A stretch of 64,000 nucleotides of DNA from assembly GCA_937898755.1 (NCBI GenBank), contig CALEJU010000025.1, positions 16,000 to 79,999 on the forward strand, in the 5' to 3' direction. The position numbers were made by a program, and so were the translations under genes. Below the pieces are notes generated by a model. It was not told the origin of the DNA and did not search any database. It saw only the letters and a list, made by a program, of their open reading frames with translations. This DNA comes from an uncultured Acidobacteriota bacterium (GTDB taxonomy: Bacteria; Acidobacteriota; Terriglobia; Terriglobales; SCQP01). Each line of letters starts with the position of its first letter. The first letter of the stretch is position 1. Positions 3,114 to 34,665 of this stretch are shown piece after piece.

Positions 3114-3251
3114 GCGCCAACGACTGAGCCTCCGTCCGGTCCATCGCAACCGCGAGCTGCAGTTGCGGATAGAAACCGACATCAGTGGCAACATTCCACC
3201 CTGGGACGGCCGTCCACTCTGATCGCACTCAGCAAAGATCTCTGACTCACC

Positions 3252-7834: not shown

Positions 7835-7842
7835 AGGACAAC

Positions 7843-9048
7843 ATGCCAGGTTGGGAAATCATCGACGAGCAAGAGCGGGCTGCGGTCAACGCGGTCTTCG
7901 ATAATGGTGCAGTCCTGTTCCGGCAGAGCTTTGCCGCACTCCGCAACAACATCTACAAGGTGAAGGAATTCGAACAGGCGTTTGCCGCCTACACCGGCGC
8001 AAACCACGCACAGGCCGTCACCTCCGGTACGGCGGCCGTCAAAGTCGCCCTGAAGGCGCTCGAGATCGGACCGGGCGACGAGGTCATCACTCAGAGCCAT
8101 ACCTTTGTGGCCACGGTCGAGGCGATTCTGGAATGCGGCGCCATTCCGGTGATTGCCAACATCGACGAGACCTTGAATCTCGACCCCGAGGATTTGCTGC
8201 GCAAGATCACTCCACGCACCCGGGCGGTCATTCCGGTTCACATGCTGGGGGTAGCGGCGCGCATGGACCGGGTTCTGGAGATCGCCCGCCGTCACGGCTT
8301 GTACGTCGTGGAAGACACCGCCCAGGCCTGTGGGGGAACTTGGCAGGGCAGGAAACTTGGAACGCTCGGCGATGCCGGCACGTTCAGCTTTGACCATGGG
8401 AAGTTTCTGACCACCGGCGAAGGCGGCATGGTGGTGAGCAATGATCCCCAGGTCGCTTTTCGGGCCAAGTGCTATACCGATCACGGCCACGAGGATAATC
8501 CCGCGTTTCCGCGGGGTGAGGACACCCGGTCACGCCCGGGATTCAACTACCGGATGATGGAGTTACAGGGCGCCATCGGCGTGGTGCAGCTCGGCAAGCT
8601 GCCGGGTTCACTGGACCGCCATCGTGCCAACAAGCGCGCGCTCCGCGCCGCGCTGGACGCCCACGTCTCCGCCCCCCTGGTCTATCGCACGGTGACCGAT
8701 CCGGACGGCGATACCGGCGATGCGCTCGTCTTTTTCTTGGAGACGGCCGAGCGCGCCCGCGCCGTGGCGCGGACCCTGCAAGGGCGCGGGATCGGCTTCA
8801 AAAACCTACCCGACGCCCTGAACTGGCATTTCGCCGGGACGTGGGACCATCTGCTGGCTGACACCCCTGCATTGCATGGGGCCACGCTCGCCCAGCACTG
8901 CGAGCCCAGTGAACGTATTCTGCGCCGCGCCATCGCACTGCCCATTTTTTACAAGATGGACGACGCCCGATTCGCCCAGATCGCGACCGAAGTGGAAGGC
9001 GCATTGCGACAAACCCGCGAAAAGAGCGCAACTTTTTCCGTGCGGTGA
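7843..9048 (+). CDS. DegT/DnrJ aminotransferase, KdnA-like (Kdo C8 transaminase type)
   Basis: MPGWE N-terminus, SGTAA, PGDEVI, SFDHGKFLTTGEGG (PLP Lys), DHGH; resembles Shewanella KdnA as recalled. Confidence 0.82.
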   Translation: MPGWEIIDEQERAAVNAVFDNGAVLFRQSFAALRNNIYKVKEFEQAFAAYTGANHAQAVTSGTAAVKVALKALEIGPGDEVITQSHTFVATVEAILECGAIPVIANIDETLNLDPEDLLRKITPRTRAVIPVHMLGVAARMDRVLEIARRHGLYVVEDTAQACGGTWQGRKLGTLGDAGTFSFDHGKFLTTGEGGMVVSNDPQVAFRAKCYTDHGHEDNPAFPRGEDTRSRPGFNYRMMELQGAIGVVQLGKLPGSLDRHRANKRALRAALDAHVSAPLVYRTVTDPDGDTGDALVFFLETAERARAVARTLQGRGIGFKNLPDALNWHFAGTWDHLLADTPALHGATLAQHCEPSERILRRAIALPIFYKMDDARFAQIATEVEGALRQTREKSATFSVR

Positions 9049-9084
9049 GGTTTATGTTCCGCAGAGCTGGAACCGGCCGCCCGT

Positions 9085-9906
9085 GTGCCCAGCGCTAGGG
9101 GACATTCAGTGGATGCCATCCTGCAAGTCAGAATGAGCTCAAGTCGTCTGCCCGGCAAGGCGCTCCTGCCGGTGCTGGGACGGCCGCTCCTGTGGTACAA
9201 CATCGAACGCATCCGGTTGTCCCGGATGATCGATCGGGTGGTTGTGGCGACCAGCACCGACCCCGCCGACGATGTCATTACCGCCGCCTGTGAGGGATGG
9301 GGAACGCCAGTGTTCCGCGGCAGCCTGAACGACGTTCTGGACCGCATCTACGGTTGCGCCCGCCATTTCGAGATGGACGTCTTCGCCAAATTCACCGCCG
9401 ACAACCCGCTCATCGACCCCTGCGTCATCGACGCGGTGATCGCCGGCTTCCGCAGCAACCCCGCGCCGCTTGACTATTACAGCAACAATCACCCGCCAAC
9501 CTGGCCCGACGGCCAGGAAATCGAAGTCATCCGGACTGCGGCCTTGGAGAGCGCATGGCGGGAATCGCAAGAGGCTTTCCAGCGGGAGCACGTTACGGTC
9601 TGGTTGTGGGATCAGCCGCAGCGATTTCGCGTCGGCAACCTTGCGCGCAGCAACAACGCCTGGTACCAGCGCTATCGCTGGACGCTGGACTTTCCCGAGG
9701 ATTACGTACTAATCCGTCGCATTTTTGAAGAGCTTTACCCCGCTCAGCCGGCTTTTGGCACCACCCAGATCATGGCCCTGATCGATCGCAAGCCGGAGCT
9801 GGCCGAATTGAATCGAAGGCACAAGGGCGACGTTTGGTATCGCCACCACCGGGATTCGTTGCAAACCGTGGCTAAGGAAATGACCCTCGAAAGTTCGCGC
9901 CCATGA
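9085..9906 (+). CDS. SpsF-like cytidylyltransferase (CMP-ulosonate synthetase type)
   Basis: AILQVRMSSSRLPGKAL, VVVATS, FRGSLNDVLDR, TADNPLID, RWTLDFPED; start may be GTG 9109. Confidence 0.82.
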   Translation: MPSARGHSVDAILQVRMSSSRLPGKALLPVLGRPLLWYNIERIRLSRMIDRVVVATSTDPADDVITAACEGWGTPVFRGSLNDVLDRIYGCARHFEMDVFAKFTADNPLIDPCVIDAVIAGFRSNPAPLDYYSNNHPPTWPDGQEIEVIRTAALESAWRESQEAFQREHVTVWLWDQPQRFRVGNLARSNNAWYQRYRWTLDFPEDYVLIRRIFEELYPAQPAFGTTQIMALIDRKPELAELNRRHKGDVWYRHHRDSLQTVAKEMTLESSRP

Positions 9907-10955
9907 GCCATTCGATTTCCATTGCCGGGCGTGAAGTTGGCGTTGATCGTCCCACGTTTGTCATTGCCGAAGCGGGCGTCAACCATAACGGTGATCTGGC
10001 GACCGCCATGCGCATGGTGGAAGTGGCAGCCCAGAGCGGCGCCGATGCCGTAAAGTTTCAGACCTTCGATTCCGATGCACTGGCGACCGCCGCCGCCCCC
10101 AAAGCGGAGTACCAGGTCCGGACCACCGGCGGGAGCGAATCGCAGCGGGACATGCTGCGGCGTTTGCAATTATCGGCGGCCGCGCATCGCGAACTGAAGT
10201 CTCATGCCGATCGCCAGGGCATCATCTTTCTGTCAAGCCCCTTCGACGACGCCAGCGTGGATCTGCTGCTGGACCTCGGCGTCCCGGCGTTTAAGATCCC
10301 TTCCGGCGAGCTGACCAACCTGCCCTTGCTCCAGCGGATCGCCCGCTCCGGCAAGCCGGTCATCCTTTCGACCGGAATGGCGGGACTGGGTGAAATCGAG
10401 AGTGCGCTTCGCTGCCTGCTGGCCGAGGGGGCGGAGAACGTCATTCTGCTGCAATGCGTGACCCAGTACCCGGCCGATCCGGCCGACGTCCACTTACGGG
10501 CCATGGCAACGATGAAGGCCACCTTCGGGCTGCCGGTCGGCTATTCCGATCATACGGAGAGCCCAGAGGTCGTCCTGGCGGCGGTGGCCCTGGGTGCCTG
10601 CGTGATCGAGAAGCACTTCACGCTGGATCGAACCTTGCCCGGACCGGACCATCGGGCATCCGCCGAGCCGGCGGAATTGAAACAACTCATCACTTCCATT
10701 CGCGTAGTGGAGTCCGCGCTGGGGACGCCGCGCAAGCGGCCCGGAGCCGGGGAGCTGCAAAACGCGAAAGTTGCGCGCAAGAGCTTGGTCGCGCGCGTCA
10801 AAATTCCAGCGGGCGCTCCCTTCACCGCCGACAACGTAACCACCAAGCGGCCCGGCACCGGCATCGCGCCGGGCCATCTCGACATCGTCTTGCAACGTCG
10901 TGCGCGGGTCGACATCGAGCCGGACCAACTCTTGTCGTGGGACATGCTGGCCTGA
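9903..10955 (+). CDS. neuB: Nonulosonic acid synthase (NeuB/LegI) with C-terminal SAF domain
   Basis: IAEAGVNHNGD, ADAVKFQTF, KIPSGELTN, ILSTGMA, GYSDHT, IEKHFTLD, GPDH, KRPGTGI. Confidence 0.93.
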   Translation: MSHSISIAGREVGVDRPTFVIAEAGVNHNGDLATAMRMVEVAAQSGADAVKFQTFDSDALATAAAPKAEYQVRTTGGSESQRDMLRRLQLSAAAHRELKSHADRQGIIFLSSPFDDASVDLLLDLGVPAFKIPSGELTNLPLLQRIARSGKPVILSTGMAGLGEIESALRCLLAEGAENVILLQCVTQYPADPADVHLRAMATMKATFGLPVGYSDHTESPEVVLAAVALGACVIEKHFTLDRTLPGPDHRASAEPAELKQLITSIRVVESALGTPRKRPGAGELQNAKVARKSLVARVKIPAGAPFTADNVTTKRPGTGIAPGHLDIVLQRRARVDIEPDQLLSWDMLA

Positions 10956-11201
10956 CCGGCTGTCCCACCCCGCCACATTCCGCCTACCACGGGCCATGCG
11001 TCACGGGACCGCTGGCCTGCCGCCGACCGGGCCTGGGCCGGGGCCTTGATCCGTCTTCCCAGCGGCTTCCGGACCGCCACGACAGCACGACCGAAACCTG
11101 ACGCATCCCCATGGTTCATCCTTATCGGGCCACTGAACTTGATCCGGCTTCGCCTTGGCGAAGACAAGTCAACGCGGCTTGCCCGCGCCCAGGGAGCATG
11201 C

Positions 11202-12365
11202 ATGTCGCGACGTAAGATTCTGGTGTTGACCGGAATCCGTTCGGAATATGGCATCTTATTTCCCGTTCTGCGTGCCATTCAGGAACACCCCCAGCTGGAA
11301 TTGCTGGTGGTCGCCGCTGCGGCCCATTGCTCACCCGCCTTGGGTCACACGGTGGAGATGATTGAACAAGATGGGTTTCCGATTGCAGAGCGGATCGAGA
11401 GCCTGCTGAGTTCGAACACGCCGGGCGGAAGAATCAAGTCGACCGCCATCGAGATGCTCGGTCTGGTGCAAACCCTCGAGCGTTTGCGCCCCGATCTGAT
11501 CGTGGCGGTGGGCGATCGCGAGGAGCCGCTGGTGGCGGCCTTCTGCGGCGTACATTTGAACATTCCGATGGCGCACCTGTGCGGCGGCGATTATGTGATT
11601 GGCGGGAACGCGGACGACTCCATCCGCCACGCGGTCAGTAAAATGGCGCATCTGCACTTTCCCATGAGCGAGATGAGCGCGGAACGGCTCCGTCGCATGG
11701 GCGAAGAAGACTGGCGGATCCACTGCACCGGCAACCCCGGCTTGGACCGCTTGTTCTGGGAACCCCCGCTCACGCGCGAGGAACTCGCGTCACGTTGGGG
11801 CTTCGCTCTTGGCCAGTCACCGCTGGTGGTGATCATTCAGCATCCCGTCAATGCAGAAGCCGGGGACGCCGCGCGGCAGATGGCGATCACGCTGGAGGCC
11901 GTGGCCGACGTCCGCTGTACCGCGATTCTCATCTACCCGAACTCCGATCCGGGCAGTCACGATACGATTCGCACCATAGAGTCCTATTTGCCAAAGACTG
12001 GCCATCTCCACGCGTTTCGGAATCTCCCGCAATCGGAGTTTGTCAACCTGCTGCGGCATGCCGGCGTTCTAGTGGGGAATTCCAGCCTCGGTATTCTGGA
12101 AGCACCGGCGCTACGCCTGCCCGTCGTGAACATCGGCAATCGTCAAAACGGGCGGGAGCACGCCGCCAACGTCCAATTTGTCCCCCATGAGAAGGCGGCC
12201 ATCCAGCACGCCACGGAGCGCGCCCTGTTCAATGCCGGCTACCGCGAGGAGGTTGCACAGTGTCACAACCCCTTCGGAGATGGCCATGCGGGGAAGCGCA
12301 TTGCTGACATTCTTGCCACCTGCCCGCTCGACGAAACCCTCCTGCTCAAACGGGGCGTGCAGTGA
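11202..12365 (+). CDS. neuC: Hydrolysing NDP-GlcNAc/diacetamido-sugar 2-epimerase (NeuC/LegG)
   Basis: LTGIRSEYG, GDREE, HLCGGD, IRHAVSKMAHLHF, YPNSD, GNSSLG, NIGNRQNGR, FGDG; start ATG 11202 after AGGGAG. Confidence 0.92.
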   Translation: MSRRKILVLTGIRSEYGILFPVLRAIQEHPQLELLVVAAAAHCSPALGHTVEMIEQDGFPIAERIESLLSSNTPGGRIKSTAIEMLGLVQTLERLRPDLIVAVGDREEPLVAAFCGVHLNIPMAHLCGGDYVIGGNADDSIRHAVSKMAHLHFPMSEMSAERLRRMGEEDWRIHCTGNPGLDRLFWEPPLTREELASRWGFALGQSPLVVIIQHPVNAEAGDAARQMAITLEAVADVRCTAILIYPNSDPGSHDTIRTIESYLPKTGHLHAFRNLPQSEFVNLLRHAGVLVGNSSLGILEAPALRLPVVNIGNRQNGREHAANVQFVPHEKAAIQHATERALFNAGYREEVAQCHNPFGDGHAGKRIADILATCPLDETLLLKRGVQ

Positions 12366-13045
12366 GTGAACCGCCTCCCATGCGGGTCGTCGGGATCGGA
12401 GCGGGCGGACACGCCAAGGTCCTTCTGGATATCCTATTGACCGACCCTCGGGTCCGCGTGATCGGGGTGACCGATTCGGATCCGGCTCTCAGGGGGCAGT
12501 CCGTTCTGGGCATTCCCGTGCTGGGGGGCGATGACATCCTTGCCTCTCTGCGGAGCCAGGGGGTGGAGGGCGCTTTCATCGGCGTCGGCAGCGTCGGACC
12601 CGCCCTGCGGTGCCAGCAGCTGTTTGAAGACATGCAGCATCGGGGATTCCATATCCTTTCGATCACCCACCCCCGCGCCGTCGTGGCGCGCGATGTGCAA
12701 CGCGCCACCGGCGTGATGGTGATGGCGGGAGCGGTCGTCAACCCGGGTGTGCATCTCGGATGCAACGTCATCATCAACACCGGCGCCATCGTCGAGCACG
12801 ACACTTGGATTGGCGATCACGTGCACGTGGCGCCGGGCGCGGTGATCGGCGGTGGGGTGGTGGTCGAAGCGGGTGCCCACATCGGGCTGGGCGCGCGGAT
12901 CCGGCAGGGTATCCGCATTGGAGCCCACGCGCTCGTGGCGTCCGGAGCTGTCGTCGTCCGCGATGTGGCGGCGCACACACAGGTGATGGGAGTGCCCGCG
13001 CGTCCGCGGGATTGGTCCAGGGGGGAAGAGTCGCGCCATGACTGA
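12362..13045 (+). CDS. NeuD/PglD-family sugar N/O-acetyltransferase
   Basis: GAGGHAKV; hexapeptide repeats INTGAIVEHD, HVAPGAVIGG; GVPAR. Confidence 0.9.
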   Translation: MSEPPPMRVVGIGAGGHAKVLLDILLTDPRVRVIGVTDSDPALRGQSVLGIPVLGGDDILASLRSQGVEGAFIGVGSVGPALRCQQLFEDMQHRGFHILSITHPRAVVARDVQRATGVMVMAGAVVNPGVHLGCNVIINTGAIVEHDTWIGDHVHVAPGAVIGGGVVVEAGAHIGLGARIRQGIRIGAHALVASGAVVVRDVAAHTQVMGVPARPRDWSRGEESRHD

Positions 13046-14099
13046 TCCGGATCTGGAACAGTTTCTGGTAACGAAATACACGACGCTGCGCCAGGCCATG
13101 CAGGCGATTGACCGCAATGCTCAAGGCATCGTCCTGGTCGTCGACCCCGATCGGCGGCTGCTGGCCACCTTGACCGACGGCGACATCCGGCGCGCCATTC
13201 TGCAAGCCATCAACCTGGACGACCCGGTGGAGTCGCTGCTATCCGTGCAAGAGAAACAGTTCCCCGTTACCGCGCCGGCGGGAAGCAACGACCATGAAAT
13301 CGCGAAACTCATGCAGGCGCATTCTATTCGCCAAGTCCCCATGCTGGACGCAGGCCAACGCGTGGTGGCCCTGCGTTGTCGGGAACAGATCCCCCTTGCC
13401 CCGGGTGCCATCCGCGCCGTGGTCATGGCCGGTGGCTTCGGGAAACGATTGCGCCCGCTGACGGAACATTTGCCCAAGCCGCTGCTACCGATTGGTGATC
13501 GTCCCCTGCTGCAACACACCATTGAACAACTCTGCGCCGCCGGCTTCCACCAGGTCAGTATCACCACCCACTTCAAAGGCGAGCTGATCCGTGATCACTT
13601 CGGCGGCGGCGAGGACTACGGCGTCGCCATTGACTATGTCTCCGAAGACATTCCCTTGGGAACCGCCGGCGCCCTGGCGCTTCTCGATCCGCCGACCGAG
13701 CCCGTGCTGGTGATCAACGGGGATATCCTGACGCGATTGGATTTCCGCTCCATGCGCGATTTCCACTTCCGGCAGAACGCTGTCATGACGGTCGGTATCA
13801 CGCGCTACGACCAACAGGTCCCGTATGGCGTGGTGGAGTTGCAAGGCGCGCAGATTCTGAACATTAAAGAAAAGCCCGTCAGCAATTTCTTTATCCTGGG
13901 CGGGATCTATTTGATCGGCCCGGAGGCATGGCAGTTTCTACGCCGGGGAGAACGCTGCGACATGCCGGATTTGATCCGTCTGCTGATCGCCGCGGGGCGC
14001 AAGGTGGTCAGCTTCCCCATTGCCGAGTATTGGCTGGACATTGGCCAGATGAAAGACTACGAGCGCGCCTTGGCGGATGTTGCCGGCGGACGGTTTTAA
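13038..14099 (+). CDS. CBS-domain sugar-phosphate nucleotidyltransferase (PtmE/LegX-type)
   Basis: N-terminal CBS (TLTDGDIRRAIL); MAGGFGKRLRPLT..PKPLL, PLGTAGAL, NGDILT, WLDIG. Confidence 0.9.
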   Translation: MTDPDLEQFLVTKYTTLRQAMQAIDRNAQGIVLVVDPDRRLLATLTDGDIRRAILQAINLDDPVESLLSVQEKQFPVTAPAGSNDHEIAKLMQAHSIRQVPMLDAGQRVVALRCREQIPLAPGAIRAVVMAGGFGKRLRPLTEHLPKPLLPIGDRPLLQHTIEQLCAAGFHQVSITTHFKGELIRDHFGGGEDYGVAIDYVSEDIPLGTAGALALLDPPTEPVLVINGDILTRLDFRSMRDFHFRQNAVMTVGITRYDQQVPYGVVELQGAQILNIKEKPVSNFFILGGIYLIGPEAWQFLRRGERCDMPDLIRLLIAAGRKVVSFPIAEYWLDIGQMKDYERALADVAGGRF

Positions 14100-14129
14100 A
14101 CCATTTCGGGATCGCTGGAGGAGGAGATT

Positions 14130-15098
14130 GTGGGTCTTACGCTGATCACCGGCGGAGCCGGTTATATCGGGAGCGCTCTGGTTCCCCAACTGTTGGCGGC
14201 CGGTCGCAAGGTCCGCGTCGTGGACTGGCTCCGCATGCAGGGTGAAAGTCTGCTCCCAGTATGGAATCAACCCGGGTTTGAGTTCCAGAAGGGGGATATC
14301 ACGCGCGCCCCCGATCGGGAACGTGCGCTGGATGGCGTGACCTCGATCATCCACCTCGCCGCCATCGTTGGGGATCCGGCCTGCAAGAAGGAGCCCGAAC
14401 TCGCCCGCTCGGTCAACCTCGATGCCACCTGCGCGCTGATCGACGGGGCCCGCCGCCACGGGGTGCGGGACTTCATCTTCGTTTCGACGTGCAGCAACTA
14501 CGGGATCAGCGACCCCGGCCAACTCGCGACCGAGCAGTCCCCGCTCAACCCGGTGTCGCTGTACGCCGAGACCAAGGTGGAGGCCGAACGCTACCTGCTG
14601 CAGTACGCCGGCCCCAGTTTCATCCCCACCGGGCTGCGACTCGCCACCGTCTACGGCGTGGCGCCGCGGATGCGTTTCGACCTGACCGTCAACGAGTTCG
14701 CCCGCGATGCCGCGCTGGGACGCAAGCTGGTCGTCTTCGCGGAAAAGCTGTGGCGCCCCTACGTGCATGTGAAGGATGTCGCCGCAGCCATTCAACTGGT
14801 CCTCGAAAGCCCCGAGGCGGCTCGCAGCGGCCAGGTGTTCAACGTCGGGCACACCACGGAAAACTACCAGAAACAACGCCTGTGCGAATTGTTGCAGGCC
14901 CGGGTTCCGGACCTGGTCGTCGAGTATGTCGCACAAGGCAATGACCCGCGCAGCTATCGCGTCAGCTTTGAACGGATCGGGACGGAGCTGGGCTTTCGTC
15001 CGCAGTTCCGCGTTCCCGATGGCATCGACGAGACCCTGGCCCTCGTCCGGGACGGCATCATTGCCGACCCGGACGAGCGGCGCTGGCGGAACAGTTAG
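14130..15098 (+). CDS. NAD-dependent epimerase/dehydratase (extended SDR)
   Basis: TGGAGYIG, HLAAIVGDPAC, STCSNYG, YAETK (YxxxK), RFDLTVN. Confidence 0.9.
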   Translation: MGLTLITGGAGYIGSALVPQLLAAGRKVRVVDWLRMQGESLLPVWNQPGFEFQKGDITRAPDRERALDGVTSIIHLAAIVGDPACKKEPELARSVNLDATCALIDGARRHGVRDFIFVSTCSNYGISDPGQLATEQSPLNPVSLYAETKVEAERYLLQYAGPSFIPTGLRLATVYGVAPRMRFDLTVNEFARDAALGRKLVVFAEKLWRPYVHVKDVAAAIQLVLESPEAARSGQVFNVGHTTENYQKQRLCELLQARVPDLVVEYVAQGNDPRSYRVSFERIGTELGFRPQFRVPDGIDETLALVRDGIIADPDERRWRNS

Positions 15099-15109
15099 GA
15101 CATTGATCC

Positions 15110-16291
15110 ATGGCGGATGAATTCATTCCTCTCTGTGTTCCCGCTCTCCGCGGCAACGAACTGCAATACCTGCGTCAATGTGTCGAGACCAACTGGGTCT
15201 CCTATGTAGGCCCGTTTGTCTCGCAGTTCGAGGCGCTCACCGCGGCGTATGTCGGTCAACCGCATGCGGTGGCCACGAACAGTGGTACGGCGGCCCTGCA
15301 CATGGCCCTGCTGCTCGCCGGCGTGCAACCGGGTGACGAAGTGCTGGTCTCGGACCTCACCTTTATCGCGCCCGTGAACACGATCCGCTACTGCGGTGCG
15401 TACCCTGTCTTCATTGATGCGGAGCCGCACTACTGGCAGATGAACGCGGACGACGTACGGTCTTTTCTGGAACAGGAATGCACGGCGGCGAACGGTCGCT
15501 TGGTCAACCGGCGCTCGGGGCGGCCCGTGACCGCCCTGCTGCCGGTCCATATTCTCGGTCATCCCGTCGATCTGGATCCGCTGCTGGAACTGGCCCGCCG
15601 TTTCGATCTGAAGTTGATCGAGGATGCAACCGAGGCGCTCGGCGCGCGCTATCGCGGGCGGCGCGCGGGGGGATTCGGGGACTCGGCCTGCTTTAGCTAT
15701 AACGGCAACAAGCTGATCACCACCGGCGGCGGGGGCATGCTGGTCACCGCCGACGCGGAGACCGCGCGACGCGCCAAACATTTGACCACCCAGGCGAAAT
15801 CCAGCGCGGACGAGTATTTCCACGACGAGATCGGCTACAACTATCGCCTCACCAATATCCAGGCCGCGGTGGGCGTCGCCCAGATGGAACAGATCGACGA
15901 CTGCATTGCGCGCAAGCGGGCTATCGCCGCCCGCTATGCGGCGGAGCTGGCCGAGGTCCCGGGCCTGACCTTGCCCGGCGAAGCGGACTGGGCATTCTCG
16001 ACCTTCTGGTTGTACACGGTTCTCATTGACGAAGCGGTAACGGGAATTTCCAGCCGCGCATTGATGCGATCCCTCGCGGAAGCCAAAATCCAGACGCGGC
16101 CCTTGTGGGGACTCATGCACGACCAGGCGCCCCACCGCCAGGCGCAGGCCTACCGCATCCAAGAAGCGCCGCGCTTGTTCCGCGAGGGCCTCAGTCTCCC
16201 CTGCTCGGTGGATTTGACCGACGAGCAACAAGCCCGGGTCATTGCCGCAGTGCGCCGGCATCTGCTCGCTTCCGCGGCGACGCCACGATGA
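15110..16291 (+). CDS. LegC-family aminotransferase
   Basis: IPLCVP..GNE..Y...CVETNWVS.VGPFV, SGTAALH, FSYNGNKLITTGGGG, YFHDEIGYNYRLTN. Confidence 0.88.
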   Translation: MADEFIPLCVPALRGNELQYLRQCVETNWVSYVGPFVSQFEALTAAYVGQPHAVATNSGTAALHMALLLAGVQPGDEVLVSDLTFIAPVNTIRYCGAYPVFIDAEPHYWQMNADDVRSFLEQECTAANGRLVNRRSGRPVTALLPVHILGHPVDLDPLLELARRFDLKLIEDATEALGARYRGRRAGGFGDSACFSYNGNKLITTGGGGMLVTADAETARRAKHLTTQAKSSADEYFHDEIGYNYRLTNIQAAVGVAQMEQIDDCIARKRAIAARYAAELAEVPGLTLPGEADWAFSTFWLYTVLIDEAVTGISSRALMRSLAEAKIQTRPLWGLMHDQAPHRQAQAYRIQEAPRLFREGLSLPCSVDLTDEQQARVIAAVRRHLLASAATPR

Positions 16292-17490
16292 TTGACCGGG
16301 TCATCTTCCTGCTGCACTCACCTCTGAACGGCCGTGATTTCGACCGGTTCGGGATTGATATTCTGCAGCAGCACGGGTTTAATGTCGAAACGTGGGACGC
16401 AAGTCACCTGTTGTGGCCCACGGTACAACCCAGCGATCAACCTCTCCATTTCGAGGGTGAAAGGAGATTTCGGGACCTCGGCGCGGTTCGCCGGGAACTG
16501 AGTCGCCTGCCGCGCTCGTCCTTTGTCATCCCGCTATTCACTGCGGCAGAAAACTTTGGCACCTTGCGTGTCTTTCGAACCTTGTCCGCCAGTGCCGCGC
16601 GCTACGGACTGACACAACTGGCGGCGCTTCCAACGACGCCGCAACTATCGCACGGGCGGCGACTGGAACGCGCCGTTCAAGACCCGTCCTGGCTGATCAC
16701 GCGATCCATCTTTCGGGCAGCCCTGGCTTGTTCCCCGCTTCGCCCTCCTGACCTCTTGCTGGTCAGCGCAGGAGGCGCCCTGCGAGGGATTCAAGTACAT
16801 CCTGAAACCGAGGTGCTGTGGACACATTCGTTGGATTACGATCTCTTTCGGCAACTCCGGTCGAGCCATGGTGTTCCCCGGCTTGATTGCGGCATCTTTC
16901 TGGACGAGTACAACGCATACCATCCAGACTTCCGACGTTTGGGAATCCCGACGCCGGTGACCGCCGAGCGGTACTATCCCGCGCTGTGCCGTTTTTTTGA
17001 CCGATTGGAACGGGAGCAGCATTGCCGCATCGAAATCGCCGCCCACCCGGTTTCCGATTACCGGGATGCCGACCCCCGCTTTGGGGGGAGGGTTATCCAT
17101 CGCGGTCGCACCATGGCTCAAGTGGCGGAATCTGCCTTTGTCCTGGCGCACTGCAGCACCTCTATTCTGCATGCGGTGCTGTGGCGCAAGCCCGCGATTT
17201 TTTTCAAGACGGGTGAAATGAAGGGCACTGCATACGAGTCCACCATTGATGCGATGGCTTCCCTGCTCAACAAGACCCCTTGGTGGGCAGAACAGGATGT
17301 GGAGATGGATTGGACTGAAGCGATGCGGGTCGATGAAACCGCCTATCGCACCGCCCAAAACGACTACATCAAGCGCGAGGGTTCGGAGGACCGTCCCTGC
17401 TGGGAGATTGTCGCGCGACGCCTGCAGGCATACGGACGCGAAGTGTCCACGCCTGCCTCGCGCTCACGCCCTCTGGTAAATTCCCTTTGA
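16288..17490 (+). CDS. Uncharacterised GT-B-like protein, candidate ulosonate transferase
   Basis: Start coupled to the legC stop (ATGA); C-terminal IAAHP and LAHCSTSILHAVLWRKP resemble sialyl/Kdo-transferase-like folds; function inferred. Confidence 0.55.
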   Translation: MIDRVIFLLHSPLNGRDFDRFGIDILQQHGFNVETWDASHLLWPTVQPSDQPLHFEGERRFRDLGAVRRELSRLPRSSFVIPLFTAAENFGTLRVFRTLSASAARYGLTQLAALPTTPQLSHGRRLERAVQDPSWLITRSIFRAALACSPLRPPDLLLVSAGGALRGIQVHPETEVLWTHSLDYDLFRQLRSSHGVPRLDCGIFLDEYNAYHPDFRRLGIPTPVTAERYYPALCRFFDRLEREQHCRIEIAAHPVSDYRDADPRFGGRVIHRGRTMAQVAESAFVLAHCSTSILHAVLWRKPAIFFKTGEMKGTAYESTIDAMASLLNKTPWWAEQDVEMDWTEAMRVDETAYRTAQNDYIKREGSEDRPCWEIVARRLQAYGREVSTPASRSRPLVNSL

Positions 17491-19046
17491 AGATGCCGTC
17501 GTTGCAACGTCTGGAGCAACGGACGCAAGCCGTCCCCATACGGTTGCTCATCAGTCTACTCGGCACCGTTTCCCGGGCGGCGCTCTCTTTTTTGAACGCA
17601 ACCTTGGTGGCCCGCGGCCTGGGCGCGGGCGGATACGGAAATCTCAGCTTTCTTCTCGCCAGCTTCAGCGGCCTTGGGGTGCTGTGGGATGCGGGGGTTT
17701 CGCAGGCCTTCTTTACAGGCATCGCCGGCCGTCGTCGAGGCCCGCGAATCTTCTTCCTCTACTCGGCATGGCTGGCGGTTCAATTTTCGCTGACGGTCAC
17801 CTGCATTGCCGTGATCTTTCCTGGCCGTTGGATGCACGCGGTCTGGCTCGGCCAGGAGCGACCGGTCATCCTTCTCGCGTTCCTCGCGAGTTTCCTGACC
17901 AGTCAAGGGTGGAACACCGTTCAGGTCCTCGGCGAAGCGGTGCGCAAGACCAGCACTGTCCAGTTGGCAACCGTACTCCGGGCTGCCGCCCACACCCTGC
18001 TGCTGCTGCTGGCGATCCATTTCGTCCGACTCTCGGTGTCCATTGTCTTTGGGTTTCTCATCTTGGAATATGTCGTGGGCATGGCAGTCGTCGCGCCCCG
18101 GTTTCTGAAGGCGAATATCGACCGGGAAGGCGCGGATGTGGACTGGAAGACCCTGGTTCATGAGTTTGCCGCCTACTGCACGCCCATGGTGGGCTATGCC
18201 ATCCTGAGTTTCGGTTACAAATTTGTAGACCAGTGGCTGCTGCAGCGCTATGGGGGCTCCATCCAGCAGGGCTATTTTGCTTTCGCGCAGCAGTTCGTCA
18301 ACGTCGCACTCCTCGCCACGGCGGCCATCATTAATGTCCTCTTCAAGGAACTGTCCGAGGCCTCGAAGCGTGGCGATCACGAACGAGTCGCTCGTCTCCA
18401 CCGCCGATTTTCCATCAGTCTCTATGCTTTCACGGCTTGGCTGATCGCCCTGCTGTTGCCTTGCAGCCGAACCATACTTCAGCACACAGCCGGACCCCAA
18501 TTCACGGCCGGAGCCATGGTATTTGCGGTCATGCTGACGTTTCCGCTTCATCAGTGCCTGGGTCAGATCAACGGGACGTTTTTCTACGCCACTGGGAATA
18601 CACGCACGCTGGCTTGGCTCGGACCGATCGGCATGGGCCTCAGCATCGTGGGTGGCTACTTTACCTTGGCGCCCCGCAATGCTTGGTTGCCCGGGCTGGG
18701 CCTGGGCGCAACCGCCCTCGCGGTGAAAATGGTCGTGGTGCAAGTGGTGGCGGTCAATCTCCAGCTTTGGTTGATTGCACGCCATCAAAAACGACACTAC
18801 CGCGGCTTCTTTCAACTTATGTTCTTCCCGCTGCTTGGCTTGTCGTGGCTGGCCCAGCACGCCCTGGCCGGAACAACGATCCCTCAAATAGTCCAGCAGG
18901 GTCTGGCTGGGCTGCTCTACACCAGCGTAACCGTGGCGCTGATCTTTCGTTTTCCGCTATGGGTGGGCCTAAGCCCAGAGACGATGAGGACAATGTGGGT
19001 TTGGTGCTTGAAGCACGGTTGGCCAACAAAAGCATCGGCGCTTTGA
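17487..19046 (+). CDS. wzx: Wzx-type polysaccharide flippase
   Basis: Polytopic hydrophobic protein; ARGLGAGGYG N-terminal pattern; FVDQWLL..YGG..QQGYFA. Confidence 0.8.
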   Translation: MKMPSLQRLEQRTQAVPIRLLISLLGTVSRAALSFLNATLVARGLGAGGYGNLSFLLASFSGLGVLWDAGVSQAFFTGIAGRRRGPRIFFLYSAWLAVQFSLTVTCIAVIFPGRWMHAVWLGQERPVILLAFLASFLTSQGWNTVQVLGEAVRKTSTVQLATVLRAAAHTLLLLLAIHFVRLSVSIVFGFLILEYVVGMAVVAPRFLKANIDREGADVDWKTLVHEFAAYCTPMVGYAILSFGYKFVDQWLLQRYGGSIQQGYFAFAQQFVNVALLATAAIINVLFKELSEASKRGDHERVARLHRRFSISLYAFTAWLIALLLPCSRTILQHTAGPQFTAGAMVFAVMLTFPLHQCLGQINGTFFYATGNTRTLAWLGPIGMGLSIVGGYFTLAPRNAWLPGLGLGATALAVKMVVVQVVAVNLQLWLIARHQKRHYRGFFQLMFFPLLGLSWLAQHALAGTTIPQIVQQGLAGLLYTSVTVALIFRFPLWVGLSPETMRTMWVWCLKHGWPTKASAL

Positions 19047-20377: not shown

Positions 20378-21157
20378 ATGAAGGCCGTCGCCATATTACC
20401 TGCCCGTATGGGCTCGAGTCGTTTCCCGGGCAAGCCCTTGGCCAGGCTGGCGGGCCGGACCATGATCGAACATGTGTACCAGCGGACGCGGCTTTGCGGC
20501 GGCCTGGCGGCGGTGTACGTCGCCACCTGCGACGAGGACATCGCTGGCGCGGCGCGCGCGTTCGGCGCCCCGGTCATCATGACGGCCGCAACACATGAGC
20601 GGGCGTCCGAGCGCATCGCCGAAGCCGCCCGCCACTTGGATGCGGATGTCGTCGTCCTGGTTCAAGGCGACGAGCCCATGATCGTTCCGGAGATGATTGA
20701 CGAGGCGCTGCAGCCGATGCTGCAGGACCCGCACGTTCTCTGCACGAATTTGACCGCTCCCATTTTGACAGCGGACGAGTTCGAGGACCGGAACACCATC
20801 AAAGTGGTGCTGGGAGCGAATGGGGACGCGTTGTACTTCAGCCGTGAACCGATCCCCACCCGGCAACGCCTGGCCTTTGAAGAGCTCGAGGCTTGGAAGC
20901 AGGTGTGCGTCATCCCCTACCGCCGCGATTTTCTGTTTCGCTATGTGGAGCTTGCGCCCACGCCCCTCGAAATTGCGGAATCCATTGACATGCTTCGCCT
21001 GCTGGAGCACGGATACCCGGTGCGGATGGTGAAGACGCTGCACCGGACGCAGAGCGTGGATACCCCCGCCGATCTGGCCCGGGTAGAAGGGCTGATGAAA
21101 CGGGATCCACTTCTGGAACGCTATACCGGAGGACAGGTGGCCGCGCCGCTTCGCTGA
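20378..21157 (+). CDS. kdsB: CMP-Kdo synthetase (3-deoxy-manno-octulosonate cytidylyltransferase)
   Basis: LPARMGSSRFPGKPLA, VATCDE, ERIAEA, VQGDEP, ALYFSREPIP, ESIDMLRLLEHG, SVDTPAD. Confidence 0.88.
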   Translation: MKAVAILPARMGSSRFPGKPLARLAGRTMIEHVYQRTRLCGGLAAVYVATCDEDIAGAARAFGAPVIMTAATHERASERIAEAARHLDADVVVLVQGDEPMIVPEMIDEALQPMLQDPHVLCTNLTAPILTADEFEDRNTIKVVLGANGDALYFSREPIPTRQRLAFEELEAWKQVCVIPYRRDFLFRYVELAPTPLEIAESIDMLRLLEHGYPVRMVKTLHRTQSVDTPADLARVEGLMKRDPLLERYTGGQVAAPLR

Positions 21158-22302: not shown

Positions 22303-23346
22303 GTGACCGTGTCAACACGCACGGCTGACGCCGAAAAAATGAAGGAAAACGACATCCGTCCGCAGGCTCTGTTCGAGAGATATTTGCAGCTTGCCCAGCG
22401 GGACGCAGAGACGCACTTTGCCGACAAGTCCGGCTTCGTGACGGTGGCGTGCCCCGCCTGTGGAAACGACAGCTCCCGTCCCGGACTGGAAAAACTCGGT
22501 TTTCACTATGTGGTGTGCCGCGCCTGCGACAGCCTCTATCTCTCTCCGCGGCCCGACCGGGAAGCGCTGGATCATTATTACCGCACTGGCGAGGCGGTCA
22601 AGTTCTGGTCGTCCCACTTTTTCCGGGAGACCGCCGAAGCGCGCCGAGTGCGCATGTTCCGGCCCCGCGCCGAACAGATTGCCGGGCTGGCCCGCGGTCA
22701 GGGGACCGGCCAGCTGGCCGACTTTGTTGACGTCGGCTCCGGTTTCGGGATTTTCCTGGAAGAGATGGCGCGGCAGAACTGTTTTGCCAAGGTGACCGGA
22801 ATCGAACCCGGTCCGGACCTGGCCGAGACATGTCGCCAGCGTGGCTTTCCGATCCTGCAAAAGCCGGTGGAAGCCATCGCTGAAGACGAACTCCAGGTCG
22901 ACTTCGCCACTGCTTTCGAAGTCATTGAGCACGTCTTCGATCCTCGAGATTTTCTGCTCGCCATTCGCCGTATTCTGCGCCCGGGTGGGGTTGTTTTCTT
23001 TACCACCCTGACGGTCAGCGGCTTCGACATCCAGGAGTTGTGGGAGCATTCCAACAGCGTTCACCCGCCCCACCACATCAACCTGATGTCGGTGCAGGGG
23101 TTTCGGCAACTGGTCGGGCGGGCGGGTTTTGTCCTGCAGGATCTCAGTACCCCGGGGAAGCTGGATGTGGACATCGTGCGCAACGCGTGGCAAGCCAATC
23201 CGTCCATTCCGCGCTCCCGCTTTGCCGATCAGCTGCTCCGGCACACCGATCCCACGGTTCAACAGGAGTTACAGGACTTTCTCCGCCGACACAGGTTGAG
23301 CTCGCACGTGCAAGTGGTTGCCGTCCGTTCAGAACAGATATTCTAG
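22303..23346 (+). CDS. Class I SAM-dependent methyltransferase with N-terminal Cys-cluster
   Basis: CPACG..CRACD; VDVGSGFG; FEVIEHVFDP; PPHHINL; its TAG stop overlaps the CTAG site of the IS630 left end. Confidence 0.85.
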   Translation: MTVSTRTADAEKMKENDIRPQALFERYLQLAQRDAETHFADKSGFVTVACPACGNDSSRPGLEKLGFHYVVCRACDSLYLSPRPDREALDHYYRTGEAVKFWSSHFFRETAEARRVRMFRPRAEQIAGLARGQGTGQLADFVDVGSGFGIFLEEMARQNCFAKVTGIEPGPDLAETCRQRGFPILQKPVEAIAEDELQVDFATAFEVIEHVFDPRDFLLAIRRILRPGGVVFFTTLTVSGFDIQELWEHSNSVHPPHHINLMSVQGFRQLVGRAGFVLQDLSTPGKLDVDIVRNAWQANPSIPRSRFADQLLRHTDPTVQQELQDFLRRHRLSSHVQVVAVRSEQIF

Positions 23347-27028: not shown

Positions 27029-28831
27029 ATGTCCATTACCGTAATCACTGCGAGAGCTGCCCGCACGGCACCCGCTGCCGATCGCTGGGTTTATTTGGGC
27101 AAGAACACGCAGTTGCGCCAACACCTGGCGCAGCGTTTCGGCAGGGAACGTGAGCAACGGCTGGGTGACCGGGTGGACCGCATGGCGCGGGAGATCCGCG
27201 AGCAACTGCGCGAGTGGAGTGCTCGCGCCAATGAACGACACCGCCATGAACTCAAGTGGTGGGCGACCCGCATCGCAAGTCCCAATCCCTACGTGTCCGA
27301 CTGGTTTTTGCTGATCTGCCTGGTGTTGGTTGGCCGCGACCTGATCACGGAATGGGCCGCCCGTCCGGAGACGACGTTATTGGTGATCGAAGACCCTTGG
27401 GCCTTTCAGACGCTGCGCCGCTGTTGCAACGACTCCGGCGAGATTCGCTTTCAGGGAAAGCCGCGCTTGGGACTGCAGTACGTCCGCTTGGCCATTCGGG
27501 GAGTCCTGGCTCGCTTGCGTCTGTTCGCCCACCTCGTTTTCGATCGGCTGGCAGTGGCTCGCGGTACGCAGCGGGACGGACTGCAGGAGAAGACGGTTTG
27601 GATCTTCTCGTTGGCGGAAAATCGAATCCGAACCAGCGTCGGCTTCGATGACCCCTATCTCGCCGGGTTGGGTGACATGCTGACCTCGCATGGCTTGGTC
27701 TACCAGCGTTGCCTGGGGCCGTTGCTGACGCCGGAACTCCGCAGAAGGCAGGATTGGCGCACGGCTTTCCTTCCCCTTTCGGGTCTCCTGCGCTGGCGTG
27801 ATCTTCTTTGGTTAACGGTCAATAGTCGGCCGCCGCAGCTCGATCTCGAGCTGAAATTGCGGGGCCTCGATCTTGAGCCGATCCTCGCACGCGAGCGGTG
27901 GCACGAAATCGGTTCCGCGAATTTGTCCGTCAACCTGACTTACTATGCCGCGTTTCGGCAGTTGTTTTCACGGCGGCAGGTGCGGAAGTTATTCTATTTC
28001 AGTGAATGGCAACCTTGGGAAAAACTGCTGTGCCTGGCTCGCGATCGGTTTGCTCCCGAAGTGGAACTAATCGGCTACCAGCATTCGACCATTCCGCTGT
28101 TTCTGTTGAGCCATTTTCCATGGCATTCGCAATGGTCCTGGCTGCCCCGTCCAGATGCACTGGTGGCGAATGGTGCCTTGAGCGAACGAATTTTCCGCGA
28201 AGCGAACTACCCGGACGGATACGTCAGGCAGGGCGGCGCTTTGCGCTATGGCTACTTCTGCGGGAACCAGCCGCGCGCACCAGGCAAACATCAGAGCGAC
28301 GAGCGCAGGATCCTGGTGGCCCTGCCGATCGACACGTACCTTAGCCGGGAGTTAATGGAGCTGCTGGCCGGGAACGAGGCACTCTGGCGGGAACAGCGGA
28401 TGCGGCTCGAGGTGAAGACCCATCCCGACTGCCCGTGGGAGTCCATCGCCCCTGACCTGCCGGCGGACTCGTGGATCCGGCCCACCCATCGCCGCTTGGA
28501 GGAACAGGCGAACGCCTTGGATGCGGTGTTGTATTGCAGTACGTCTGTCGGCCTCGAGGCGGTATTGCTGGGCCTTCCCACCTTCGCCTATGTAGCGCAA
28601 GGGGTACTGACCTTGGATGCAACGCTCGATTGGTTCCCCGGTCACGTGATCCGGTGCGACAATTGCACGCTGATCGAGCGGTTGGTCGACTGGCGGCAAA
28701 ATGGGTTGCCGCAGGTGATCGCACCTCCAAGATTTGAGGATGTTTTTGGGGCGATCCAGGCGGATGTGTGGATCAAGTTGGCTTCCGGCCAGCGTGATAA
28801 ACTGCTGCCAACGCCGTTCACCAACAGGTAA
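27029..28831 (+). CDS. Uncharacterised surface-carbohydrate biosynthesis protein, GT-B-like C-terminus
   Basis: 600-aa in-operon ORF with GYQHS, VKTHP, STSVGLEAVLLGLP motifs typical of CDP-glycerol/sialyl-transferase-like folds. Confidence 0.55.
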   Translation: MSITVITARAARTAPAADRWVYLGKNTQLRQHLAQRFGREREQRLGDRVDRMAREIREQLREWSARANERHRHELKWWATRIASPNPYVSDWFLLICLVLVGRDLITEWAARPETTLLVIEDPWAFQTLRRCCNDSGEIRFQGKPRLGLQYVRLAIRGVLARLRLFAHLVFDRLAVARGTQRDGLQEKTVWIFSLAENRIRTSVGFDDPYLAGLGDMLTSHGLVYQRCLGPLLTPELRRRQDWRTAFLPLSGLLRWRDLLWLTVNSRPPQLDLELKLRGLDLEPILARERWHEIGSANLSVNLTYYAAFRQLFSRRQVRKLFYFSEWQPWEKLLCLARDRFAPEVELIGYQHSTIPLFLLSHFPWHSQWSWLPRPDALVANGALSERIFREANYPDGYVRQGGALRYGYFCGNQPRAPGKHQSDERRILVALPIDTYLSRELMELLAGNEALWREQRMRLEVKTHPDCPWESIAPDLPADSWIRPTHRRLEEQANALDAVLYCSTSVGLEAVLLGLPTFAYVAQGVLTLDATLDWFPGHVIRCDNCTLIERLVDWRQNGLPQVIAPPRFEDVFGAIQADVWIKLASGQRDKLLPTPFTNR

Positions 28832-28976
28832 CTCTTAGCCTGCCTGTCTCGGTACGCGCCTGCAGGTCGCCTTCCGGTACACGGTGCTGGCTGCGTCGCC
28901 GGCCCCCGAAGACATTGCGTGGCCCGTAGAGCCGTTTGGTAACGGTCGTTTACCCGGGTCGGCTTGCCCTGCTTTC

Positions 28977-33289: not shown

Positions 33290-33695
33290 CGAGCGCGGTA
33301 AGATCATGCATATGATGCGCTGCGACGATCCGCAGTTCGAGCGCTTTGGTGAAATCTATTTTTCCGGGGTGTACCCCGGAGCCATCAAGGCCTGGCACGT
33401 TCACCGCGAAATGACGCTCCATTACGCGGTGGTGATCGGCATGATTAAATTCGTCCTCTACGATGCACGCCCCGGCTCGCCCACGCACGGCGAACTGCAG
33501 GAGATCTTCATGGGGGAGCAGAACTATTGTCGTGTCAGAGTGCCGCCAGGCGTCTACAATGGCTTCAAGGGGATGGGGACAGAGATGGCGCTGGTTGCGA
33601 ACTGTCCCACGCTGCCCTTCGACGCCAATGAAATCGAGCGCCTCGATCCGTTTTCCACCGCCATCCCCTATAACTGGGAGATCCGTCACGGATGA
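33246..33695 (+). CDS. RmlC-like cupin (NDP-4-keto-6-deoxyhexose epimerase/isomerase)
   Basis: [37 protein letters not shown]. Confidence 0.85.
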
Positions 33696-34612: not shown

Positions 34613-34665
34613 GCGTTCGTGCACAGGGGTGGACTGGTATTTCACTTTGGAAACAGGAATTTAAA

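Follow-up and report, generated by a model that had tools for sequence, protein, structure and literature searches.

Which enzyme attaches a legionaminic-type sugar to the polysaccharide whose locus supplies it? Legionaminic (Leg) and pseudaminic (Pse) acids decorate capsules, O-antigens, S-layers and flagella, and very few of the enzymes responsible for attaching them are known. Two papers (2018 and 2020), on Halorubrum and Bacillus subtilis, state that a Leg transferase acting on proteins or surface glycans was still to be identified (PMC6137143, PMC7439481). Flagellin glycosylation aside, Tannerella is so far the one case in which genetics has demonstrated such a transferase. We took up this question in a 64,000-nucleotide stretch of DNA (hereafter, the window) from an uncultured Acidobacteriota bacterium (contig CALEJU010000025.1, positions 16,000 to 79,999), in which a 400-residue protein, P0001, is encoded between a complete legionaminic-type gene set and a flippase gene. 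Our analysis leads us to consider it reasonably likely that P0001 is a soluble or peripheral glycosyltransferase of the GT-B fold that acts on the cytidine monophosphate (CMP)-activated legionaminic-type sugar of the adjoining operon.

The P0001 gene and its family

The gene for P0001 shares its first bases with the end of legC and its last with the start of a Wzx-like open reading frame (ORF), so that the coupling on both sides reported in the initial annotation is borne out by the sequence at either end:

16288..17490, plus strand: P0001 coding sequence, 400 amino acids, candidate CMP-nonulosonate transferase; translated without stops, soluble, with a two-domain GT-B AlphaFold2 model
16288..16291, plus strand: ATGA start/stop overlap of the P0001 ATG with the TGA of legC
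17487..17490, plus strand: TTGA overlap of the P0001 TGA (17488-17490) with the TTG at 17487 of the Wzx-like ORF
15110..16291, plus strand: LegC-family aminotransferase (TIGR04181, 444.8 bits against a cut-off of 420)
17487..19046, plus strand: Wzx-like flippase (Polysacc_synt, E 3.9e-6, 26.9 bits, just below the 28.2 cut-off)

The Wzx-like ORF also has an alternative in-frame ATG at 17493, six bases after the TTG. We placed the start of P0001 at ATG 16288 because its homologues align from residues 1-5 in phmmer searches; a longer reading frame opening at GTG 16105 was rejected, as the homologues begin at ATG 16288. The protein contains no segment of transmembrane strength (maximum Kyte-Doolittle mean over 19 residues, 1.27), and its gene is present in one copy in its own genome.

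P0001 had been described as an orphan, a label that gives way before an exhaustive phmmer search over 1.84 billion cluster representatives: 3142 representatives were recovered at E<=1e-3, of which 482 reach E<=1e-30, with lengths that nearly always fall at 380-420 amino acids, as against just 3-12 relatives found by a word-index protein search. This large family is largely nameless. P0001 matches no Pfam family even to E<=10 and no NCBIfam model, and the sole row obtained by sequence against Protein Data Bank (PDB) chains, a metallo-beta-lactamase at E 1.7, is noise. A set of 83 homologues gave no Pfam match at E<=0.01 and nothing useful in NCBIfam or the PDB; TIGR04326 (cut-off 250 bits) matches one of the 83, at E 0.005, and does not match P0001 itself. 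Neither P0001 nor these homologues match PF07388, PF07922, PF11477, PF04464, PF05159 or Epimerase_2 (PF02350), nor any GT1, GT4 or GT28 Pfam model. In the protein atlas the related clusters are all annotated as 'hypothetical protein' and share no common Pfam family, and the nearest named clusters carry in part PF07388, PF27908 or PF04464. We found no paper describing the family.

NeuB and CMP-synthetase genes accompany the family

The strongest evidence for function comes from gene context. Upstream of P0001, Pfam and NCBIfam models identify a complete legionaminic-type gene set, which opens with an iron-dependent alcohol dehydrogenase and a DegT aminotransferase, ends in the LegC-family gene listed above and otherwise comprises:

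9085..9906, plus strand: CTP_transf_3 cytidylyltransferase (SpsF-like), the probable CMP-Leg synthetase making the donor (PF02348, E 1.2e-29)
9903..10955, plus strand: NeuB/LegI-type nonulosonate synthase (PF03102, E 4.7e-96)
11046..15098, plus strand: NeuC/LegG-type 2-epimerase, PglD-like acetyltransferase, CBS-nucleotidyltransferase (PtmE-like) and short-chain dehydrogenase/reductase (SDR) dehydratase (Pfam)

To ask how far this arrangement extends, we retrieved 47 loci by a peptide pattern (the stretch encoded at 16894..16926) derived from 14 closer sequences; because the pattern comes from the protein itself, the choice of loci is independent of their context. NeuB was sought by tblastn with window proteins within 8 kb of the P0001-family gene, and 28 of the 47 loci are flanked fully over that distance. 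NeuB lies within this range in 27 of the 28 fully flanked loci and in 34 overall, on the same strand in 33 of the 34; the loci that lack it are mostly short contigs. When all ORFs of the loci were clustered, a CTP_transf_3 cytidylyltransferase came out as the most frequent companion, in 36 of the 47, ahead of NeuB in 34. This cytidylyltransferase gene lies directly upstream of the family member in 10 loci other than the window, and on the downstream side the immediate neighbour is Wzx, another flippase of the multidrug/oligosaccharidyl-lipid/polysaccharide (MOP) type or a fused ATP-binding cassette (ABC) exporter in at least 14. A minimal arrangement, in locus L002, reads NeuB, NeuC, PtmE, CMP-synthetase, P0001 homologue and Wzx; L005 and L014 are similar, with NeuB, NeuC, other Leg-pathway genes (PtmE, or LegC and LegB), the CMP-synthetase and the P0001 homologue, and all three loci have a single cytidylyltransferase gene each. 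Since 20 of the 28 full loci, like the window, have a NeuC-type gene beside the family member, the protein does not stand in for the GT-B enzyme that the pathway already has. The NeuB proteins fall into a LegI-like group, 45-53% identical to that of the window, and a more distant group at 30-43%; the family is therefore probably not restricted to a single nonulosonate.

These loci come from Omnitrophota, Elusimicrobia, Syntrophales, Desulfovibrionales, Nitrospirae, Planctomycetales, Bacteroidota, Campylobacterales, a cyanobacterium and a magnetospirillum, and, among archaea, from Methanoperedens, Methanolobus, Methanoregula and a Woesearchaeote. In a sample of 300 other genomes of the window's phylum no copy was found at E<=1e-10, and tblastn against plasmids gave no match. 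The distribution is patchy, and the family has spread horizontally.

P0001 adopts a GT-B fold in the predicted model

The GT-B-like character first attributed to P0001 is upheld by an AlphaFold2 model built on the 83-sequence alignment (predicted local distance difference test [pLDDT] score 93.2, predicted template modelling [pTM] score 0.90), which comprises two Rossmann-like domains. Foldseek returns 267 PDB matches at E<=1e-3, every one of them GT-B, and all VIA-align matches are likewise GT-B, with Z scores of up to 15.3 over ~300 residues. The initial annotation had named a fold other than GT-B as grounds for refutation, and its reading passes that check.

The closeness of the scores is a different matter. 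Comparison with the sialyltransferase and Kdo (3-deoxy-D-manno-octulosonate) transferase families GT38, GT52, GT80 and GT107, which the initial annotation had put forward as a way to place the protein, does not single these families out: their scores are level with those of TagF-like enzymes, GT1 enzymes and 2-epimerases. For the whole protein, VIA-align gives Z 15.3 for TarL with cytidine diphosphate (CDP)-ribitol, 14-15 for uridine diphosphate (UDP)-sugar 2-epimerases, 14.3 for TagF, 14.1 for NeuC, 13.9 for Bcs3 with CMP, 13.4-14.2 for polysialyltransferase and 12-13 for GT1 enzymes. The C-terminal domain folded alone (pLDDT 94.5) finds no Foldseek match at E<=1e-3, and its top VIA-align scores again tie (CalG3 10.5, polysialyltransferase 10.4, TarL 9.8). 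Polysialyltransferase has the lowest root-mean-square deviation (3.1 Å) and the highest identity (17%) among the top rows, and KpsC, the GT52 sialyltransferase NST and WbbB follow at about Z 8 (KpsC 8.1; WbbB 7.7, with 16% identity). Since the scores tie, the fold by itself does not name a subfamily.

Conserved residues concentrate in the C-terminal domain

The His-Pro (HP) and Ser-Thr-Ser (STS) motifs pointed out earlier are present in P0001, at residues 253-254 (nucleotides 17044-17049) and 290-292 (nucleotides 17155-17163). Conservation, expressed as the frequency of the top residue in the alignment of 83 homologues, highlights these and four further elements:

16333..16353, plus strand: N-domain loop R16-D-x-x-R20-F-G22 after the first strand (R20 0.95, G22 1.00), among the few conserved N-domain residues
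16825..16842, plus strand: H180-S-L-D183-Y-D185, where the two domains join, a predicted candidate for the catalytic base or for a DxD-like motif (H180 0.99, D183 1.00, D185 0.95)
16894..16926, plus strand: I-F-L-D206-E-Y-x-x-Y-H212-P, first C-domain strand and loop (D206 1.00, F204 0.96, H212 0.93)
17038..17061, plus strand: A-A-H253-P254-x-S-x-Y, HP motif after the second C-domain strand (H253 0.99, P254 1.00)
17149..17163, plus strand: H288-C-S290-T291-S292, STS motif after the fourth C-domain strand (S290 0.96, H288 0.88)
17188..17193, plus strand: K301-P302, before the fifth C-domain strand (K301 0.94, P302 0.99)

In the model, the strand formed by residues 247-252 precedes the HP motif and that formed by 284-287 precedes S290; T291 is common among the homologues. 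An HP dipeptide is unremarkable by itself, because P0001 has three (at 171, 212 and 253), and it is the conservation at 253-254 that matters. We take the position of S290/T291 to be like that of the serines of PmST1 or polysialyltransferase.

The two domains differ in how strongly they are conserved. Only R20, G22, W36 and P115 reach a frequency of 0.92 in the N-domain, whereas the junction and C-domain hold H180, D183, Y184, D185, L188, V203, F204, D206, P210, H212, Y229, F237, E241, A251, A252, H253, P254, Y258, F265, R268, T275, S290, K301, P302, Y353, Y356, I361, K362 and W372 at this level; the mean is 0.58 over C-domain residues 201-310 and 0.36 over N-domain residues 61-170. Such a pattern, typical of glycosyltransferases, fits a constant nucleotide-binding half joined to a variable half that would bind the acceptor.

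Profile comparisons favor HP-motif transferase-like families over NeuC

Remote homology was examined by hhalign. The profile of the P0001 family aligns with a profile built from 17 TIGR04326-like proteins (probability 90.9, E 1.1e-6, 149 columns) and with a profile of seven relatives that score below the cut-off of NF046086 (probability 81.5, E 1.2e-5, 108 columns), as against controls of a 22-sequence NeuC profile (probability 3.9, E 0.011) and NeuB (probability 0.5, E 0.11). NF046086 is the NCBIfam model built on Tannerella BFO_1060, and the comparison with Tannerella was made through this model and its sub-cut-off relatives. In the TIGR04326-like alignment, the HP of P0001 falls on the invariant HP of that family and its STS on an S-S/T, and in the NF046086-like alignment the HP, ST and KP elements are all in register. 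Single-sequence comparisons were fainter: weak against a 600-residue TIGR04326-like protein of the window (E 0.009), E 0.057 against the NF046086-like protein L068, and not significant against a PF07388-like protein (E 0.17, though HP and ST aligned) or a PF04464-like protein (E 0.52). NF046086 matches TIGR04326-like genes in two genomes (E 1.8e-12 and 9e-6); in a search of 37 other genomes it did not report P0001-family genes at E<=1e-5. Judged by these profiles, the family appears to share one broad assemblage of HP-motif GT-B proteins with the TagB-like nonulosonate transferases, as a member of no named family.

The NeuC control bears on the idea that P0001 is no transferase but an enzyme with the GT-B fold that helps to make or tailor the nonulosonate, epimerase- or hydrolase-like in the manner of NeuC or PseG. 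UDP-sugar 2-epimerases, NeuC included, do tie for the best structural match, and the loci are rich in tailoring genes (methyltransferases, B12-binding radical S-adenosylmethionine [SAM] enzymes, and pairs of an Fe-dependent alcohol dehydrogenase [Fe-ADH] and an aminotransferase). No member of the family, however, matches Epimerase_2, and the NeuC profile falls far short of the E 1e-6 and 1e-5 obtained with the HP-motif transferase-like families. A true NeuC-type gene usually accompanies the family, and the Leg enzyme set of the window is already complete. The poorly conserved N-domain, moreover, fits varied acceptors and not one fixed substrate, and the gene usually sits at the boundary with the flippase gene. 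We regard this explanation as quite unlikely.

The same alignments speak to an ordinary GT-B transferase that would use a UDP-, guanosine diphosphate- or deoxythymidine diphosphate-sugar for another residue of the repeat unit and be carried along by operon structure. GT1-type enzymes come close in the whole-protein comparison, CalG3 shares the top of the C-domain search, and the locus also makes CDP-hexose- and UDP-uronic-acid-type sugars. Against this, the association holds in unrelated loci across many phyla and archaea, whose other sugars vary and in which only the NeuB and CMP-synthetase genes are constant; no GT1, GT4 or GT28 model matches; and the HP/ST/KP core aligns with CMP/CDP-type families. 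Of this explanation we think very little.

A second candidate transferase lies in the same locus

The initial annotation had treated P0001 as the only candidate in the locus, and in doing so overlooked a second HP-motif protein; the locus also has a second cytidylyltransferase:

20378..21157, plus strand: second cytidylyltransferase, KdsB-like (NF009905, 304.7 bits)
27029..28831, plus strand: second HP-motif candidate transferase, 600 amino acids, TIGR04326-like (65 bits, below the cut-off); one such gene in the genome

The statement of the initial annotation that no recognizable sialyltransferase occurs elsewhere in the locus stands for the families checked, as PF07388, PF04464, PF05159, PF01973 and NF046086 have no match in the whole genome (NF046086 searched in the translated genome at E<=0.01), but it has to be amended for the 600-residue protein, which also bears HP and STS motifs. 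A genome search for PF07922 also came back empty, but with controls that gave no signal it carries no weight. The KdsB-like gene is an extra copy, since genome tblastn finds a 36%-identical paralogue on contig C6 that is presumably the housekeeping copy. The genome, of 3.7 Mb, has one NeuB by tblastn.

Of 32 genomes with a P0001-family gene, 14 contain relatives of the 600-residue protein; in the other 18 none was found with this query. TIGR04326-like genes adjoin KdsB-like, 2-hydroxyacid-dehydrogenase and DegT genes. A recurrent order, consisting of Fe-ADH, DegT, CMP-synthetase, NeuB, NeuC, P0001 homologue, flippase or membrane protein, KdsB-like gene and 2-hydroxyacid dehydrogenase, is found in the window, Methanolobus (L008), Elusimicrobia (L012), Roseivirga (L035) and, in part, Raphidiopsis (L036); a TIGR04326-like gene lies further downstream in the first four and not in L036. 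Methanoregula (L015) has the first half of this order through the P0001 homologue and a TIGR04326-like gene ~5 kb downstream, with no flippase, KdsB-like or 2-hydroxyacid-dehydrogenase gene detected between the two.

This arrangement raises the possibility that P0001 is a transferase of the same superfamily with another CMP- or CDP-linked donor, such as the KdsB-like product (Kdo-like or another acidic sugar), or a TagF-type phosphotransferase, and that the 600-residue protein is the Leg transferase. The top structural match is indeed TarL with CDP-ribitol, with TagF close by; the locus has two cytidylyltransferases; NF046086, the model of a Tannerella nonulosonate transferase, matches TIGR04326-like members in the two genomes mentioned above; and KdsB-like genes lie downstream of the P0001 family in the window, L008, L012, L035 and L036. 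Yet family members directly follow the CMP-nonulosonate synthetase in 10 loci, and L002, L005 and L014 have no second cytidylyltransferase. NeuB is near-constant in the full loci, whereas a clearly KdsB-like gene (35-53% identical to that of the window) is found in only about 6 of the 47, and it is the TIGR04326-like genes, not found with this query in 18 of 32 genomes, that adjoin the KdsB-like cassette. No CDP-glycerol or CDP-ribitol supply genes (TagD- or TarI/TarJ-type) were seen among the ORFs scanned between 79 and 47534, some small ORFs lying outside the scan, and P0001 has no PF04464 match. We therefore judge this alternative unlikely. The simplest reading, drawn from gene proximity, is that the locus supplies two CMP-activated acidic sugars to two dedicated transferases, P0001 for the NeuB product and the 600-residue protein for the KdsB-like product.

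Several side observations concern this second gene and its surroundings. The 600-residue protein is followed by a 455-residue DegT-type aminotransferase (28884-30251), as also in four other genomes (L052, L054, L062, L064), and within the KdsB-like cassette the two seem to form a conserved pair; in other genomes, 2-hydroxyacid-dehydrogenase or KdsB-like genes precede the TIGR04326-like gene. L012 (Elusimicrobia) and L035 (Roseivirga) have two tandem KdsB-like genes after the flippase, where the window has one.

Probable function and proposed mechanism

Taken together, the GT-B fold, the conserved HP and S/T motifs, the link to NeuB and CMP-synthetase genes and a core homology to HP-motif transferase-like families that is far better than that to NeuC make the transfer of a CMP-activated nonulosonate, as the initial annotation had proposed, the best reading of P0001, with the transfer step itself inferred. 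It is also the expected prediction for a GT-B gene in such a locus.

A number of points weigh against this assignment. The E-values of the profile links, 1e-5 to 1e-6, are modest, and the NF046086-like comparators lie below the curated cut-off (the best at 76 against 200 bits) and are not certified members. Fold searches, whether with the whole protein (ties at Z 13-15) or with the C-domain (Z 9-10.5), do not tell CMP/CDP-dependent enzymes apart from 2-epimerases or GT1 enzymes that depend on UDP. Other GT-B groups, too, contact the nucleotide phosphate through their HP and S-x positions, and the motifs are therefore not specific. Association with NeuB would be equally expected of a pathway or tailoring enzyme, and, with a second candidate and a second cytidylyltransferase in the locus, the assignment of the donor draws on proximity and on the minimal loci elsewhere. 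In Bacillus subtilis, a TagB-like, HP-bearing protein, SpsB, adjoins the Leg genes and is not necessary for Leg to be transferred (PMC7439481), a warning against inference from neighbourhood that tempers our confidence. Across the whole family, the probable function is read from sequence, model and gene context.

From what the analysis itself shows (the gene and its coupling, the fold, the conservation, the context and the core homology), we infer a donor, an acceptor and a set of residue roles as follows. P0001 would add the NeuB-pathway sugar to a lipid-linked repeat unit on the cytoplasmic face, before the Wzx encoded downstream flips the unit. The C-terminal Rossmann domain would bind CMP, with H253 of the HP motif stabilizing or protonating the leaving phosphate and S290/T291, K301 and R268 binding the phosphate and the carboxylate. 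At the cleft, D183/D185/H180 or D206 might activate the acceptor hydroxyl, and the variable N-terminal domain would bind the acceptor. The reaction could be inverting, as in sialyltransferases, or retaining, as in KpsC and WbbB, perhaps by way of the invariant D206.

A broader proposal, on which we are evenly divided, is that the family as a whole forms a new group of CMP-nonulosonate transferases, with no Pfam, NCBIfam or solved relative, that forms a single module with the legionaminic-type pathway, passes with it by horizontal transfer among many bacterial phyla and methanogenic archaea, and attaches legionaminic-type sugars to polysaccharides and archaeal glycans. With at least 3000 sequence clusters, a confident model, few candidate catalytic residues and cultivable carriers (Pedobacter, with P. 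hartonius at L046; Flavobacterium, with F. limi at L044; Chryseobacterium, with C. taiwanense at L042; and Methanolobus), the family offers a direct handle for testing; if the proposal is true, its enzymes could be of use in the chemoenzymatic synthesis of legionaminylated glycans.

Other features of the window and related loci

The window as a whole is a large Wza/Wzc/Wzx/Wzy polysaccharide locus, whose genes include an initiating Bac_transf, a NusG-like one, Wzc, Wza, Wzy and several of the GT2/GT4 type. Downstream of the flippase come an FkbM methyltransferase, the KdsB-like gene, a 2-hydroxyacid dehydrogenase, further methyltransferases, a GT2-dehydrogenase fusion and the 600-residue protein. 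Upstream of the cytidylyltransferase-NeuB pair stands one further element:

6650-9048: Fe-ADH and DegT aminotransferase, directly upstream of the cytidylyltransferase-NeuB pair

The same Fe-ADH and DegT genes occur in this position in about 11 other loci (L008, L009, L010, L012, L013, L015, L016, L021, L029, L034, L035). We take the pair to resemble Shewanella KdnB/KdnA, which convert Kdo to 8-amino-Kdo, so an additional amino group may be present on the nonulosonate.

Methylation is a second recurring theme. One homologue, P0042 (722 amino acids), carries an N-terminal Methyltransf_23 fusion like the 347-residue methyltransferase of the window (22303-23346), and a Methyltransf_23-type gene is the immediate neighbour of the family member in six loci (L011, L016, L018, L023, L024, L031). 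A B12-binding radical SAM protein of ~500 amino acids is encoded in 15 of the 47 loci (L004, L005, L011, L017 and 11 more), often directly after the P0001 homologue, and may be responsible for C- or N-methylation of the sugar or of its acyl group.

Among the homologues, L033 (Campylobacterales) contains two copies ~4 kb apart (3239-4357 and 8001-9140), and in L045 (987-2148), from an Omnitrophota single-cell assembly, the gene is broken into two overlapping frames, perhaps by a frameshift or through an error in sequencing. In the window, a 625-residue ORF at 34258-36135, with no Pfam match, overlaps the end of a GT2 gene (33692-34612) in another frame and may encode a polymerase or other membrane protein of the locus.

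Comparison with known systems

P0001 shares part of its design with several groups of enzymes that use, or are proposed to use, cytidine-nucleotide donors. The flagellin transferases of the Maf (PF01973) and FlmG types resemble it in their donor, a CMP-nonulosonate (for P0001, the one proposed), but have another fold or architecture and protein acceptors, whereas the locus of P0001 is a polysaccharide locus; Maf4 and FlmG act specifically on flagellin, and their architecture is unrelated (PMC9298399, PMC7591256). The retaining beta-Kdo transferases KpsC/KpsS (GT107, PF05159) and WbbB (GT99) use CMP-ulosonate donors and have an HP motif; P0001 differs from them in its lack of a PF05159 match, in their low structural rank and in its full-size N-domain. 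GT38 polysialyltransferase (5wc6/5wcn), the GT52 enzyme NST (2yk4) and GT80 enzymes have the GT-B fold and an HP motif followed by a Ser/Thr pair, but no Pfam model of theirs matches P0001, and their structural scores tie with those of GT-B enzymes that are not sialyltransferases. The CDP-alditol phosphotransferases TagF, TarL and TagB (PF04464), together with TagF-like polymerases of capsules (Bcs3), give the best whole-protein structural scores and are cytidine-nucleotide-dependent and GT-B-like; the absence of a PF04464 match and of CDP-alditol synthesis genes among the scanned ORFs sets P0001 apart from them.

TIGR04326 (O_ant_LIC13510, 'surface carbohydrate biosynthesis protein') is linked to the family by profile comparison. 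It shares the HP..S-S/T core and occurs in the same super-loci as the P0001 family in Acidobacteriota, Elusimicrobia, Bacteroidota and methanogens. Its proteins, which are uncharacterized, are by contrast ~600 residues long with a large extra N-terminal part, go with the KdsB-like cassette and not directly with NeuB, and lack the junction motif H-x-x-D-Y-D, the equivalent of which reads G-G-A-L-R-Y.

A further comparison is with Tannerella forsythia, in which Tanf_01245 and TFUB4_00887/BFO_1060 are the transferases of the Pse- and Leg-derivatives of the protein O-glycan (PMC5420450). Knock-outs of either gene lose the sugar, reconstitution with the same gene restores it, and neither gene complements the mutant of the other (PMC5420450). 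Both proteins are TagB-like GT-B enzymes with DXD, D/E-D/E-G and HP motifs, are encoded directly downstream of CMP-nonulosonate genes, and have identical C-terminal halves and different N-terminal halves (PMC5420450). The NF046086 model built on one of them does not match P0001, its 83 homologues or the translated genome (E<=0.01), and the candidates in P0001 for the D/E-D/E-G motif, D206-E207-Y and D183-Y-D185, both lack the glycine. In organization, the two systems share several traits. In Tannerella, just a methyltransferase lies between the Leg-derivative transferase and the CMP-Leg genes, and in both systems a soluble GT-B protein of ~400-445 amino acids is encoded downstream of CMP-nonulosonate genes with a methyltransferase nearby, and combines a variable N-terminal half with a conserved C-terminal half at the start of which stand an HP motif and, in P0001 as candidates, DxD-like and acidic motifs.

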